Source: a virus (lineage: Duplodnaviria; Caudoviricetes). From it: a DNA stretch of 64,000 nt. This document shows positions 22,532 to 26,461 of the stretch, piece after piece. The stretch lies in the IMG/VR virus record IMGVR_UViG_3300003541_000003, positions 3,297 to 67,296 of that record. One strand, 5' to 3'. The position numbers and the translations under genes were made by a program. Every line of letters begins with the position of its first letter. The stretch's first letter is position 1. The notes under the pieces are model-generated. The model was not told the origin of the DNA. It saw only the letters and a list, made by a program, of their open reading frames with translations, and searched no databases.

Positions 22532-22725
22532 TTGCTCCTCCTCTTGCTCTGCTATACGCAATGTTAAATAATTATAGGCTCTCATGCTCTGAGAGCCTTT
22601 AAAAGTATATCTATCCGCAATAGGGGAGCTAAAACGGCAAGGGGAGCTAAAATCTAGGGTAAAGCGTATAGCTTAACATAACGCAAGTATACTCTATATG
22701 CTCTGATTAGGCAAGGGGAGCAATT

Positions 22726-22889
22726 TAGCCGTAAAATGATAGCTACTTCATATAATATATACTATACAGGCTCTAGGCTTTAGCAGGAGGAGAGCCGGAG
22801 CAAGGGGAGCATGCTCCTGCTAATGGCTCTAGCCTCCCTAGCCGTAAAATGATAGCTACTTCATATAATATAGTATATACAGGCTCTAG
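22726..22889. repeat. Two 51-bp direct repeats (48/51 identical, 113-bp period) plus four GGGGAGC motifs nearby
   Basis: TAGCCGTAAAATGATAGCTACTTCATATAATATA-nnn-TATACAGGCTCTAG at 22726 and 22839. Confidence 0.9.
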
Positions 22890-22957
22890 CTCCGGCTATA
22901 TAGGAGGATTATGGTATTATTAGGAATTAGACCGTTTTTGTCATATTCCATCCTGGT

Positions 22958-22992
22958 AAAAAAAGCTCCCTAGCTTATTAGGCTAGGGAGCT
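22958..22992 (-). terminator. Rho-independent terminator ending the island operon
   Basis: AGCTCCCTAGC/GCTAGGGAGCT 11-bp stem followed by T7 on the minus strand, just downstream of the peptidase stop. Confidence 0.85.
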
Positions 22993-23018
22993 ATCATTTA
23001 GCTAGAGCCTCCTAATCT

Positions 23019-23993
23019 CTAGCCGTTTATCATGCCTCTATTGCTAGGCTCTCCGCTAGCATGCCAAAAGCTAGCACAATTATCACATAGCCATGCCTCT
23101 AAATCATCATAATAAAGAGTATCGTTAGCAGGCTCTCCGCAATAATTGCATACCTCCATTTTAAGGTATCGCTCTTGCTCCGCTAGCTCCTCCTCTAGCT
23201 TGCTCCTCTTGCTCCGCTTGCTAGAGCTTGCTCCTATAAATCTATCGCTATCTAAAAGCTCCTCCTCTAGCCATGCTCCGCTATCTCTCCATGCTCCGCT
23301 ATCTCTCCATGAGGTAGAGCGTTTAGAGTAGCTTGCTCCTCCCTCATAGATAAATTTAGTATCCTTATAGCGGAGATAAAAGCGGTTTAAGAGCGTTAGA
23401 GCTTTTAGATAATTATTAACACTAACCCTGCATAATTTAGTGTGCTCTTGCTCATAGCCTATGCCCCAATTAACGCAAGTTACTCCTAGCTCTGTTAATT
23501 CTCTTATATCGCTATAAGAGCCTATAGCCGGAACTAAGCCTATAGATTTAAGAGCCTCTAAAATCTCTTTACTCTCATAATCGTATAATACAGGCTTTAA
23601 CTCCCTCCTATCGTATTCTAGGATTAAGTTGTAGTTATGGCTAGGCTTAAAATGAAAAGCGGAGCTATAGCCTTGCTCCTCATTATCTGTTAACAATATA
23701 TCGCTATCTATCCCTAGCAATGGTAGAGCCTCTAGGCATGTATAAACTCCTAGCCTGTCATCTAGGTTAGGGGAGAATATAAACTCCTCCCCTAGAGCCT
23801 TATATTTTATAAAATCCTTGCTCTTAGGGAATACAGTATCTAAATGAGCAATAGAAAGCCATTTAGAGCCTCTATCTATATAGATATAACGCTCCCCTTT
23901 AACCTCTATAACCTCTTTAGAATATTCTAAAAAGTAACTTTCTAGGGAACGGATACAATGCTTTTTTAAATCTCTTATAGATAGGTTAATCAT
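23019..23993 (-). CDS. M28/M42-like binuclear zinc peptidase with C-terminal Cys4 finger
   Basis: AHLDTV, LDDRLG, DNEE, YDRR, YEQEHT; then CNYCGE..LCDNC. 18-bp tandem duplication (WRDSGA x2) at 23271-23306. Confidence 0.75.
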   Translation of the reverse strand: MINLSIRDLKKHCIRSLESYFLEYSKEVIEVKGERYIYIDRGSKWLSIAHLDTVFPKSKDFIKYKALGEEFIFSPNLDDRLGVYTCLEALPLLGIDSDILLTDNEEQGYSSAFHFKPSHNYNLILEYDRRELKPVLYDYESKEILEALKSIGLVPAIGSYSDIRELTELGVTCVNWGIGYEQEHTKLCRVSVNNYLKALTLLNRFYLRYKDTKFIYEGGASYSKRSTSWRDSGAWRDSGAWLEEELLDSDRFIGASSSKRSKRSKLEEELAEQERYLKMEVCNYCGEPANDTLYYDDLEAWLCDNCASFWHASGEPSNRGMING

Positions 23994-25429
23994 TTTATAA
24001 ACTCACTAAAGCTAATAGCTCTAGCCTCCTCCCTCCTATTAGCTCTAGCCATTGCACTAAAGCAAGTAGAGCAATATATAACCTCCTCTTGCTCTACCTC
24101 TAGGCTTATAGAGCTATCTATCTCTACAATAGAGCCACAAGCGGAGCAAGTTACAAGCTCTAGGCTAGAGCATGCCTCACAAACCCAAAAGCCGTTTATA
24201 TCGCTAAAATTCTCCTCTAAATGATATTCTCCGCAATAGTTACAATATTCTGCTAAATCATCCCTACAATCGGAGCATAACGTTTGATTATCTACCTCCT
24301 CTAAATCTCCTCTATCGTTATCATAATATTCTCCGCAATTATCGCAAGCGGTAAAATTATCCTCTAGGCAAGAGGAGCATATAAAGCTATCTCTACTCTC
24401 TATATATTCTCCGCTATCGTTCTCATAATATTCTCCGCAATAGTTACAGTAGCTATACTCCCCTATACAATCGGAGCATATATCTCCATAACCTCTAACA
24501 TGGTATAAATCATCCGAGCTAAAGTATTCTCCACAATCTCTACAAGGCTCTACATCTTCATCCGCTAAAATCGCATAATCGCAATCTAGGCTTTTATTGC
24601 TAGGAATATTCTCCTGTTTAGCTATGAGGTATCCGCTAGAGCTATTTATATAGAGCATATAATCACTATCGCTATTGTTAAAGCCTACTCTAGCATAACT
24701 AAAGCCTAAGAATGTAGCTAAAGCTCTAGCCGTAACTATAGCCTCTAAACCGTAACTATTAAAGAGGAGCAAGCTATCTCTATAAGGCAAGAGCCATGCT
24801 CTAGCTATTCCACTATTAATGTTAGAGCTATCAGAATAAAACCTAATCGCTATGCCTCCATTAAGCCTTATGCTCTCTTTAGCGTTAGCTCTACCTCCCC
24901 AAAAGCAAGAGCCTCTATCTCCATAATCTCCACTATCCCAATTAATTTTATCGGTAAAATCGAAATTATAGAGCTTGCTCCCCTGCTCCCCTCTAACCTT
25001 GCCTATATAGCCTCCTAGCTCTGATAGCATGCTAGCGGATAGCTTAAGGCTAAAATTCTTATAGAGATAGCTATTAAATCTCTTTAGCCATGTACCACAA
25101 TATTCTCCCTTAGAGATAATCCAACTATCTCCGTTAATAGCCTCCATTGCCTCCATGAAACGGCTCTGATATCTCATTAACCTTAATACCTCATAAGGGA
25201 GATTATCCGTAATTAAGCCGTGTTTATTAGCAAGCTCTAGCAATTGCTCCCTAATGGAATAGAGCGTATTCTCACTAAAGTTAGAGGCAAGCTCTAGGCT
25301 ATAGAGCTTGTCAATGTCATAATCGTTATTAATCTCTATCTCCGGCTTAATCTCTCTGATAATTTCTAAAGCCGTTTTATTGCTCTCATTGCATGAGATT
25401 ATGCTTTCATCCTTAATAAATGTAGCCAT
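23990..25429 (-). CDS. 479-aa protein with five tandem Cys4 zinc fingers
   Basis: Ten CxxC motifs in the C-terminal half (CRDCGEY, CNYCGEY, CDNCGEY and others). Confidence 0.8.
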   Translation of the reverse strand: MATFIKDESIISCNESNKTALEIIREIKPEIEINNDYDIDKLYSLELASNFSENTLYSIREQLLELANKHGLITDNLPYEVLRLMRYQSRFMEAMEAINGDSWIISKGEYCGTWLKRFNSYLYKNFSLKLSASMLSELGGYIGKVRGEQGSKLYNFDFTDKINWDSGDYGDRGSCFWGGRANAKESIRLNGGIAIRFYSDSSNINSGIARAWLLPYRDSLLLFNSYGLEAIVTARALATFLGFSYARVGFNNSDSDYMLYINSSSGYLIAKQENIPSNKSLDCDYAILADEDVEPCRDCGEYFSSDDLYHVRGYGDICSDCIGEYSYCNYCGEYYENDSGEYIESRDSFICSSCLEDNFTACDNCGEYYDNDRGDLEEVDNQTLCSDCRDDLAEYCNYCGEYHLEENFSDINGFWVCEACSSLELVTCSACGSIVEIDSSISLEVEQEEVIYCSTCFSAMARANRREEARAISFSEFIK

Positions 25430-25432
25430 GCC

Positions 25433-25852
25433 TTAATTCTCCTTAATCGTTATGTTAATATCGTTAGCCGTTAGCTCTATCGTTAGAGGGAGATAGAGCT
25501 TAGTAAAATTAAACTTGCTAATAGAGCCATAACGCAATAGCTCCCCTAATAAATGCCCACTATAGCCGTTAGCTAAATAATGCTCTATCGCTTGTTTATA
25601 GTTAGCTATCCTAGCTAGAATAGCCGTTAGGATTTTATCGCTCATATATGAGTAGCTTGCCTCCTTGCTAAAGATAAGAGCCTCATATAAAGCCGTGTAT
25701 TTATCCTCATAAATAGCTAGATAACCTTTAAGCTCCTCTAGGTTATCTACCTCATAACGGCTAAGGTAAAATTTATTAATCGTGTTATGGAGGTTAACTA
25801 AATCTCCGTTAATCTCTTTAATATCTAAAATCGTTAGTCTATTCTTAGGCAT
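25433..25852 (-). CDS. Hypothetical early protein
   Basis: 139 aa with GAGGAG RBS. Confidence 0.7.
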   Translation of the reverse strand: MPKNRLTILDIKEINGDLVNLHNTINKFYLSRYEVDNLEELKGYLAIYEDKYTALYEALIFSKEASYSYMSDKILTAILARIANYKQAIEHYLANGYSGHLLGELLRYGSISKFNFTKLYLPLTIELTANDINITIKEN

Positions 25853-25870
25853 GATATTAGCTCCTCTATT

Positions 25871-26116
25871 TTATAGTTTATCGTTTTGATTAATCTGGGA
25901 GGAGAGCATTATAGTTACAAGCTCTCCGCTATCATCCGTTATGTTAAAGAATACTCCGAGCCGTTTTAGCGTTATGGCTAAAAGTTTAGCATGCCTAGAG
26001 CATACTAGAGCTACACGCTCATTAAGCAAGTTAGAGATATACACGCTCTCCATAGAGCTATAACCTCTATTCTCTTGCTCCCTTGCTATGATTTTATCCG
26101 TAATATTTATACTCAT
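25871..26116 (-). CDS. Hypothetical early protein
   Basis: 81 aa with AGGAG RBS; first gene of the island operon. Confidence 0.7.
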   Translation of the reverse strand: MSINITDKIIAREQENRGYSSMESVYISNLLNERVALVCSRHAKLLAITLKRLGVFFNITDDSGELVTIMLSSQINQNDKL

Positions 26117-26461
26117 TTTAAAATCTCCTATTCTTTAGAATTGTGTTTATCCGCTTGCTAGCTCTATCAGTTTTTATAGGGTTAGTATTCTCCTCCTGCT
26201 ATAAGCCTTACAAGGTTAGAGCCTGTAGACTATCTCCGCTTTACTTAGCTAGAGTTATGCTAAGAGCCTTGCTATTCCCTTATAGCAGGAGCATGCTAGA
26301 TTATCGCTCCCTATACCACTTGACTAGAGTTATGCTAGCTAGCTTATATCTATTCTGTTGTTAGGGTTATGGAGGAGCTTGCCTCTAGTTAGCTCCTCCT
26401 AATTAGTGATAGTGAGATTTTATCCCTCTTAAATGAAGTATCCCTCATTATTAAGAATTTC

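Follow-up and report, generated by a model that had tools for sequence, protein, structure and literature searches.

The island and its surroundings

The DNA analysed here (the window) is a stretch of 64,000 nt comprising bases 3297–67296 of the 67,296-bp viral record IMGVR_UViG_3300003541_000003, and the subject is an island of about 4 kb within it that is written in a restricted vocabulary of short words, referred to below as its dialect. The island is one allele of an exchangeable, self-contained early cassette located between operator-like double palindromes at the divergence of the early and late gene arms. Homologous cassettes at this one locus carry alternative word sets, which are explained by no known process. 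The cassette consists, in order, of a leader, genes A, B, C and D on the minus strand, a terminator and a non-coding tail of ∼430 bp containing a repeat and a second hairpin. Its features are listed below in window coordinates; L011 and L111 are the contigs of two relatives that are described further on.

22495–22531, no strand assigned: left bracket, abutting the island from within conserved backbone DNA and made up of two palindrome-like sites of 17 bp (GTTTYACCWGGYGRAAC type) that are 20 bp apart
22526–26432, no strand assigned: restricted-vocabulary island, which is the exchangeable cassette, delimited by change-points, k-mer statistics and the break in homology to L011 at about 22451–22512
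22576–22598, minus strand: second terminator-like hairpin at the distal end of the non-coding tail, from a consensus scan only
22726–22889, no strand assigned: 51-nt element (family D10), two copies 113 bp apart, in the dialect-written tail downstream of the operon
22964–22992, minus strand: intrinsic terminator of the operon, located 27 nt past the gene D stop codon; 11-bp stem (seven GC pairs) plus T run
23019–23993, minus strand: gene D, 324 amino acids, predicted MH-clan (M42/M20-like) metallopeptidase core plus C-terminal C4 zinc ribbon
23990–25429, minus strand: gene C, 479 amino acids, N-terminal domain of unknown fold (W..G.YGD..SC.W motif) plus CxxC zinc-finger array (CxxCGEYY repeats)
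25433–25852, minus strand: gene B, 139 amino acids, no known family; the positional counterpart in L111 is marginally similar
25871–26116, minus strand: gene A, 81 amino acids, no known family; the L111 cassette begins with a gene 30% identical to it
26117–26432, minus strand: leader and promoter region of the operon, dialect-written throughout
26646–26682, no strand assigned: right bracket, where the 17-bp palindromic sites recur as a pair 20 bp apart; the control region around them is AT-rich and separates the divergent arms

To the left of the island lie early and replication genes (methyltransferase, primase, helicase, PolA and a RecA-like protein) and to the right small genes, lysozyme, terminase and structural genes; the island is upstream of the C5 DNA-methyltransferase gene and of a Lar-family gene. 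A first-pass annotation, made from the letters and the open reading frames (ORFs), had placed here a four-gene operon with its own terminator at the head of the early arm. This description was borne out: minus-strand ORFs of 81, 139, 479 and 324 codons are followed by the hairpin at 22964–22992 and form a self-contained unit heading the arm. The phage looks virulent from its gene content, as it encodes PolA, helicase and primase itself; a repressor or integrase was not identified. It has no cultured relatives: TerL and PolA are <32% identical to those of cultured phages, and no close relatives were found among named genomes.

The protein of gene C carries five to six zinc fingers, and the CxxCGEY module is common to C and D. 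The C-terminal half of C was modelled as tandem LIM-like fingers, and its nearest sequence clusters consist of viral hypothetical proteins only. A low-depth contig from sample X5 differs by ten substitutions within ∼60 bp of the zinc-finger repeats of gene C (24227–24283); these could be microdiversity, or the contig could derive from a paralogous repeat or a relative. The predicted fold of gene D and its metal-ligand pattern (HxD, D, EE, D/E, H) are those of the MH clan (M42/M20/M18). Foldseek matched the model to M42, TET and DapE structures (3cpx, 1vho, 2wyr and DapE; E values of 2e-7 to 1e-5), and the Pfam profiles stayed under their gathering scores (PF02127, 15.4 bits against 24; PF05343, 13.2 against 23.2). 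The invariant residues are H50, D52, D78/D79, N104-E105-E106, D128/D162 and H184 plus four cysteines, and these conserved columns would supply the metal ligands. The ribbon gave weak profile matches of the DksA/TraR type (TraR, E value of 0.03; ClpX zinc-binding domain, 0.09). Searches of Pfam, PHROG and PADLOC with A–D returned neither known defence or anti-defence families nor homologs of the T5 pre-early genes A1, A2 and dmp; the position of the four genes suggests a role in host takeover or anti-defence.

The two brackets are the arms of a 37-nt imperfect inverted repeat (I1), ∼4.15 kb apart, and within the window the 17-bp sites are confined to them. The pair is kept at the cassette edge in L011, and a homologous pair lies upstream of the L111 cassette (L111:5326 and 5347). 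Since the sites are palindromic and paired 20 bp apart, the geometry looks like that of operators for a dimeric regulator rather than of asymmetric nicking sites. The 51-nt elements of the tail contain TATAAT-like boxes and may belong to a small RNA or a promoter unit; they form a repeat of higher depth, and Rfam gave no match. On the plus strand at 22911–22973, antisense to the operon, there is a 20-codon hydrophobic ORF, MVLLGIRPFLSYSILVKKAP, with an AGGAGG ribosome-binding site. It is flanked by the 113-bp repeats on one side and by the bidirectional terminator hairpin on the other, and may encode a small membrane peptide, be toxin-like or be due to chance. No strong sigma-70 consensus was found at 26117–26432, and the operon promoter was not convincingly identified. 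Just left of the island are five ATAGTTGCGAC iteron copies (22355–22432), kept in inverted orientation at the matching place in L011 (L011:1510–1600), and a strong TTGACA-17-TAGAAT promoter at 22304–22276 has these iterons upstream.

The terminal repeat of the record is 66 bp only. Two assemblies close into a 67.23-kb circle, and an independent assembly gave a 67,143-bp contig that closes on itself and is broken only at the 113-bp direct repeat in the island tail. The end structure was judged from assembled contigs, with one depth value per contig and no pile-ups of contig begins or ends, and closure into a circle is equally compatible with a collapsed long repeat and with a permuted or cos genome. 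A 0.9-kb AT-rich non-coding stretch at the second divergent point (30609–31484) contains a 34-bp tandem pair and several inverted repeats; beyond it come small late genes, an ORF bearing a CHECH (HNH-like) motif and terminase. Packaging (cos/pac) would most plausibly be assigned to this stretch, which lies ∼4.5 kb from the island.

Word usage and the level at which it acts

Over 22532–26460, GAC/GTC was seen 8 times against 88 expected and CAG/CTG 29 times against 88, and eight tetramer pairs were wholly missing. The over-used words were CTAG (54 seen, 13 expected), AGCT (61 and 13), GCTA/TAGC (135 and 27) and GAGC/GCTC (109 and 17). In sliding 1-kb windows the 4-mer divergence from the genome mean was 0.49–0.60 over the island and ∼0.10 elsewhere, and the island value was unmatched anywhere else in the genome. 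The edges were placed at 22526 and 26432 by likelihood change-point, with a gain of 806 bits; contig L004 terminates at 22515, by the left edge. The island uses 42% of all 6-mers, against 72% in backbone of equal length. For comparison, 80 unrelated viral loci, obtained as chance matches of a scan for shared 14-mers, served as a null set: the island's 3-mer restriction score of at least 0.28 was reached by just four of 1365 windows of 1 kb, and these four were otherwise explained, by a low-complexity repeat gene (L116) or by a genome-wide AA/TT-rich signature (L124). The latter record (IMGVR_UViG_3300008005_000119) scores ∼0.25 along its full 15 kb at 55% GC (AA/TT 1.8–2.2, TA 0.3 and AG/CT 0.6 of expectation), and a strong oligonucleotide signature can thus span a whole viral genome.

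A sharply bounded restricted-vocabulary island is therefore confirmed. The first-pass count of GAC/GTC was exact on recount, the words that it called scarce (CAG/CTG) or abundant (CTAG, AGCT, TAGC and GAGC) proved to be so, the abrupt switch that it reported near 22532 and 26460 was recovered both by the change-points and by the sliding k-mer analysis, and its codon statements (Glu mostly GAG, Asp GAT, Leu CTA/TTA) held on counting, as did its claim that the bias acts at the DNA level in coding and non-coding sequence alike.

The last point is carried by three observations. Firstly, the 831 non-coding bases of the island have a dinucleotide signature that matches the coding part (odds of 0.45 for AC/GT, 0.57 for CA/TG, 1.7 for AG/CT, 1.84 for GC and 1.55 for TA), and this identity of non-coding and coding signatures was found in two dialects. 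Secondly, the bias is strand-symmetric, words and their reverse complements being shifted alike. Thirdly, codon junctions deviate from synonymous permutations, with z scores of −5.4 to −7.1 for AC, CA, GT and TG and of +6.7 to +8.3 for AG, CT, GC and TA. Together these show that the bias acts on DNA and not on codons alone. In the genes it appears as GAG over GAA for Glu (79:14), GAT over GAC for Asp (65:3), CTA (37) and TTA (34) among 111 Leu codons, AGA/AGG in 40 of 52 Arg codons and ATA in 40 of 81 Ile codons. The pressure is also visible at the protein level: Val, Thr, Pro, Gln and His are rare in the island proteins, and the share of Ala is 1–2% in GC-poor dialects against 5–7% in this island and in that of the relative L010.

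Under a first-order model the 4-mer divergence falls from 0.59 to 0.25 in the island and from 0.79 to 0.23 in the L011 cassette, so that di- and trinucleotides account for most of the information. An array of a single binding motif was rejected, as there is no dominant long word; helical phasing was rejected because a 10–11-bp periodicity was not found in the island, and simple or tandem repeats because Tandem Repeats Finder reports only short arrays of ∼150 bp in total and the top 8-mers recur 8–12 times. Short slippage-type repeats are present in the linker of gene D. The over-use of a few short words across a region recalls cryptically simple low-complexity DNA; however, the island bias crosses a well aligned catalytic domain and affects both strands alike, and it is di- and trinucleotide statistics rather than repeats that capture it. 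The true low-complexity repeat gene of L116 differs from it in appearance.

Forbidden sites and the allelic series

The backbone (window positions 1–22495 plus 26683–64000, 60 kb) lacks 38 of the 64 hexamer palindromes, each of which is expected 6–18 times, and the observed-to-expected ratio over all of them is 0.30. GATC, GGCC and CGCG are all absent; GGNCC was seen 0 times against 133 expected, GCAGC once against 91 and GGWCC 0 times against 81, and the backbone is also nearly free of GTSAC, CASTG and GGNNCC. Type IIS-like words (CTCTTC, GAAGAC and CTGAAG) and 17 interrupted palindromes (for example CACN3GTG, CCAN5-6TGG, GAAN4TTC and GCTNAGC) are likewise avoided. The backbones of L011 and L111 share this forbidden list. 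This genome-wide purge of >55 restriction sites suggests a very large restriction repertoire in the host.

The island, too, complies with this list. The 38 forbidden hexamers occur in it 0 times against 13–30 expected under island-fitted Markov models (none in 400 simulations) and the forbidden interrupted sites once against 13.8 expected, while permitted palindromes and control spacings are at expectation. It avoids the 38 and 17 sites of the backbone and no further classical ones, and classical restriction-site avoidance is thus found in backbone and island alike. At the same time palindromes are far denser in the island than in the backbone (84.5 against 38.7 per kb for 4-bp and 19.6 against 4.9 per kb for 6-bp palindromes), and its favoured words adjoin forbidden sites, of which GAGCTC (5.2 expected) and GCTNAGC (5.7 expected) were both seen 0 times. 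As the island obeys the shared list and yet has ∼4 times more 6-bp palindromes per kb, the dialect is not that purge; the compliance indicates that the cassette evolved under the same restriction regime and that the dialect is something extra. Random motifs are missing from the island more often than from the backbone (5-bp motifs, 29% against 5%; 6-bp motifs, 56% against 28%).

The proposal that the island had been purged of many host recognition motifs at once stands in part only. The phage is indeed under very heavy restriction pressure and the island does offer fewer random 5- and 6-bp sites; the site purge, however, is genome-wide and the island merely complies with it. That the island was purged beyond the rest of the genome is contradicted by its palindrome density and by words adjoining GAGCTC and GCTNAGC, and a single purge of host motifs by the opposite vocabularies that near-identical backbones carry under one forbidden list. 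Two related ideas were also rejected. The dialect is not further from forbidden sites in mutational steps, since 5.7% of point mutations in the island create such a site against 5.9–7.3% in the backbone and 7.5% in L010. The depleted trinucleotides overlap only partially with half-sites of avoided interrupted palindromes (CAC, CAG, CCA, GAA and ACC), and the island over-uses the half-sites CCT/AGG and GCT/AGC. Genome-wide depletion of protospacer-adjacent motifs (PAMs) has been described in phages (PMC4246573, PMC12174588). The present case resembles such depletion and classical avoidance in that the whole phage is extreme and the island obeys the list, and differs in that those are genome-wide and concern specific sites whereas the dialect is local, consists of 2–3-bp words both enriched and depleted, and is allele-specific.

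The island itself was recovered at 100% identity from at least four wetland samples collected over years, with no microdiversity. Homologous cassettes with protein identities of 37–54% occupy the same locus in relatives. The backbone of L011 is 73–93% identical in nucleotides up to the left edge of the island, and the adjacent protein is 93% identical; its cassette has no nucleotide similarity to this island, its D protein is 40% identical and its dialect is near-opposite (AG/CT 0.21, GC 0.28 and GG/CC 2.2 of expectation, with almost no alanine). L111 is a more distant full-length relative (adjacent protein 54% identical) with a syntenic cassette of 78, 127, 461 and 302 codons in a related GG/CC-rich dialect. 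The D protein of L010 is 54% identical, and its cassette is written in a variant of the dialect of the present phage without CTAG, AGG and GGG. There are thus two heritable dialect classes, one rich in AG/CT and GC and one rich in GG/CC and poor in AG/CT and GC. Common to all dialects are low AC/GT (0.44–0.68 of expectation) and GAC/GTC (0.09–0.42), with CAC/GTG and ACT/AGT also depleted; AGC/GCT is enriched 3.3-fold in the island, and enrichment of CCC/GGG reaches 5–6-fold.

A phylogeny of 39 D proteins unites the four dialect alleles in one clade (support 97/78; 98% of bootstrap trees). They split into the present phage with L010 and L011 with L111, matching the dialect families and conflicting with the backbone, in which the present phage is 93% identical to L011 and 54% to L111 in the adjacent protein. 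The sister of the dialect clade, L028, lies in ordinary DNA. L010, L011 and the backbones of both relatives largely obey the forbidden list; the L111 cassette does so only partly and keeps several forbidden sites. About 95 other loci with distant C or D homologs lie in ordinary DNA, the exception being a milder patch in L082, and no dialect-wide genome was found among the ∼95 D-homolog loci. Every dialect cassette for which flanks are present (this phage, L011, L111 and L082) is an island in an ordinary backbone. L082 is an unrelated 44-kb phage whose A/B/C/D-like module (L082:3900–7300) is rich in AA/TT and CC/GG and poor in AC/GT and CG; five tandem 21-bp iterons and a promoter region lie directly upstream of it (L082:3715–3815). 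The vocabulary as a property of the protein family was rejected, because distant C homologs and ∼29 other C–D modules lie in ordinary DNA. A search of phage and plasmid collections for near-identical island DNA in an unrelated replicon, which the first-pass annotation had named as a refutation of its reading, found none.

Allele-class dialects that extend over coding and non-coding DNA on top of a shared purge mark the dialect as a heritable DNA-level property of the cassette lineage. The same locus, restriction regime and near-identical backbones, yet opposite vocabularies, separate the phenomenon from donor composition and from classical avoidance. The terminator, leader, deviant composition and replacement at a fixed site between close relatives are those of an exchangeable accessory cassette (moron), and the self-contained deviant unit with operator-like flanks and block replacement also recalls the lambdoid immunity regions between OL and OR. 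The composition of morons is usually ascribed to that of the donor; here there is one clade under the same restriction regime with a far more extreme composition. No published description of allelic cassettes in alternative restricted vocabularies was found, and what is new here is the allelic series, its phylogeny and the separation from restriction-site avoidance.

Two further observations concern these relatives. The C5 DNA-methyltransferase gene at 19869–20774 has a counterpart in L111 and is missing from L011, where its flanks are joined within ∼140 bp; a link between methyltransferase and dialect was rejected, as its presence does not track the dialect class. L110 (positions 1–9500 and 18200–20618), a 66.5-kb ENA contig, joins ∼8 kb of early genes of this phage lineage to bacterial housekeeping genes (RpoD, DnaG and PNPase-like). 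Its bacterial flanks have a GC content of 55–67%, are full of GATC and GGCC and contain several frameshift-split genes; a chimera created in long-read assembly is the probable explanation, rather than a prophage.

Explanations of the dialect

The reading tentatively preferred here, although it too falls somewhat short of probable, is that the dialect is kept by selection through a short-word-dependent process whose target is the first-acting operon in its double-stranded form. Such an agent would read very short words, as in PAM-dependent interference or spacer acquisition by CRISPR systems or in the 3–4-bp half-sites of Type I/III-like systems, and would strike before the cassette products (a zinc-finger-array protein and a metallopeptidase, presumably with host-takeover or anti-defence functions) could act. 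Each of the differing vocabularies would represent one way of escape, and recombination within the conserved flanks would move them from one backbone to another. Precedents exist for the confinement of such sensitivity: in T5 sensitivity to CRISPR is confined to the first-injected pre-early region (PMC5389539), and in Autographiviridae Type I motifs matter only in the first-injected leading region, which is variable and carries anti-defence genes (PMC12455610). The island is like these T5-like pre-early and T7-like leading regions in being a small early block that heads the early arm and varies among relatives, and in them sequence content decides sensitivity to defence. Those cases concern individual sites, whereas a whole di- and trinucleotide vocabulary with allelic alternatives is seen here. 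A terminal repeat, an injection-stop signal and a homolog of a pre-early gene, as in T5, are not shown for the island, and it is not poorer in classical sites than the rest of its genome in the manner of the T5 region, having the higher density of 6-bp palindromes given above.

Several points weigh against such selection. None of the depleted words could be matched to a defence, for want of an assigned host, CRISPR type, PAM or Type I specificity. The gain against random bipartite 7-base motifs is small (73% missing against 65%). Near-identical backbones carry near-opposite dialects where words dictated by a host should converge, and because the dialects diverge the idea needs different host strains or frequency-dependent selection. 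The enrichment of AGC/GCT and CCC/GGG rivals the depletion, and avoidance offers no obvious explanation for it. The adjacent early backbone genes are free of the bias, early expression and first entry of the cassette are unproven, and the likeliest packaging region, at 30.6–31.5 kb, sits ∼4.5 kb away from the island. If short words are nevertheless selected in first-acting DNA, 2–3-bp composition informs on an early step of the conflict between phage and host, a signal that genome-scale analyses of restriction sites or PAMs miss.

A comparable patch, which serves as a further precedent for the preferred reading, was found in Wifcevirus, a group of E. coli phages (ECML-117, Ro157lw and SP13) with a small-gene patch purged of CA/TG to 0.32 of expectation (39 per kb against ∼150) and a score of 0.26 against ∼0.08. 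In ECML-117 (L232; JX128258) the patch spans 6900–8200 and comprises three to four small genes, with CG at 2.2. It occurs twice per record, within the first 3.5 kb, in the 72-kb relatives, and a direct terminal repeat of ∼3.7 kb has been described for Wifcevirus (PMC6563267); the patch thus lies within the terminal repeat. It resembles the present island as a sharply bounded, kilobase-scale, strand-symmetric purge in a small-gene cassette with ordinary genome around it, and differs in its location inside a terminal repeat, in the purging of one dinucleotide and in its unrelated genes. No publication describing the Wifcevirus CA/TG purge was found. These phages are culturable and are amenable to recoding tests.

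A possible though doubtful variant of selection by a short-word reader is that each allele class carries a private 2–3-bp code that co-evolves with a phage-encoded or a variable host reader; the cassette would be exempt from a word-dependent process, and the codes would form a balanced polymorphism shuffled between backbones. If this is true, the private codes and the Wifcevirus purge would together represent a general, undescribed layer of DNA-level selection on the first phage genes.

A cause intrinsic to the cassette or phage remains a serious rival, albeit an unlikely one. The DNA would co-evolve with a phage-encoded short-word reader, such as the zinc-finger protein C or a DNA-marking enzyme, with a private code per allele class, and the code would either keep the first-acting genes clear of a process directed at other DNA or mark them for it. 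In agreement with this, the dialect is inherited with the cassette clade and not with backbone or position, its edges coincide with the exchangeable unit and its strand-symmetric 2–3-bp bias is as expected for a reader of double-stranded DNA; C has its five to six zinc fingers, D has the same finger, and a C5 DNA-methyltransferase gene is present here and not in L011. However, LIM, TraR and ClpX modules, to which the fingers are similar, have proteins and not DNA as their ligands, and no nuclease or modification domain was found in the cassette. The methyltransferase does not track the class (L111 is of the second class, yet has one), the C–D module lies in ordinary DNA in ∼29 other phages, and there is neither a single long motif nor a helical periodicity.

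The strict form of the original proposal is judged improbable. It regarded the island as a long terminal repeat or first-step-transfer segment, as in T5 and SPO1, that is purged of many restriction motifs and enters before the methyltransferases and Lar act. The position at the head of the early arm, upstream of the C5 DNA-methyltransferase and Lar-family genes, the extreme restriction pressure on the genome, the reduced set of 6-mers in the island and the matching bracket sites ∼4.15 kb apart agree with it; a collapsed long repeat would also assemble as a circle, and the Wifcevirus patch does sit in a terminal repeat. Against it, the sole repeat in the record, an assembled contig, is the one of 66 bp, and the brackets, being palindromic pairs, look like operators rather than asymmetric nicking sites. 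The island moreover avoids the same sites as the backbone and no more, is richer in 4- and 6-bp palindromes, favours words that adjoin the forbidden GAGCTC and GCTNAGC, and has counterparts in opposite dialects under one shared list.

A locus-specific mutational process appears quite unlikely. It could consist of error-prone copying or repair that accompanies the exchange of cassettes or heavy early transcription, and would lead to lineage-specific equilibria with restriction selection superimposed. The information is mostly at the dinucleotide level, like that of mutational signatures, the bias is present in non-coding DNA and the locus is a recombination hot spot. However, near-identical backbones with the same polymerase genes hold opposite equilibria, the island shows no microdiversity over years of sampling, the ORFs scanned included neither a reverse transcriptase nor a mutator gene, and the strand symmetry argues against transcription-coupled damage.

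Ordinary horizontal transfer, with cassettes recently imported from unsampled donors of genome-wide signature and not yet ameliorated, is very unlikely. The terminator, leader and deviant composition form the classical moron pattern, and some viral genomes, such as the AA/TT-rich and TA-poor L124, do score ∼0.25 throughout. Nevertheless, the four dialect alleles form one clade whose sister lies in ordinary DNA, most of them obey the forbidden list of the backbone (the L111 cassette only partly), the flanked cassettes are all islands, with none of the ∼95 D-homolog loci dialect-wide, dinucleotide odds of 0.2–2.4 are beyond known genome signatures and no similar DNA was found in phages or plasmids. 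Judged from these sequences, the marks of a donor signature are missing and donor composition is an unlikely source. Composition-based tools will mis-call such islands as recent horizontal transfers; the islands also break metagenomic assemblies and may mark anti-defence cargo.

Translational adaptation, a restricted codon set read by few transfer RNAs (tRNAs) including the phage tRNA-Arg(UCU) under tRNA depletion or at a set rate, is hardly credible: the phage does encode this tRNA, and AGA/AGG, ATA and CTA codons are frequent, yet it is largely refuted by the identical signature of the non-coding DNA and by a strand symmetry and junction bias that exceed codon choice, and the tRNA region is 98.8% identical in L011 (L011:4303–4385, window 18742–18660), whose cassette avoids AGA. 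ARAGORN reports the tRNA-Arg(UCU) gene within 18562–18736, together with an adjacent tRNA-like element that has an aberrant anticodon arm.

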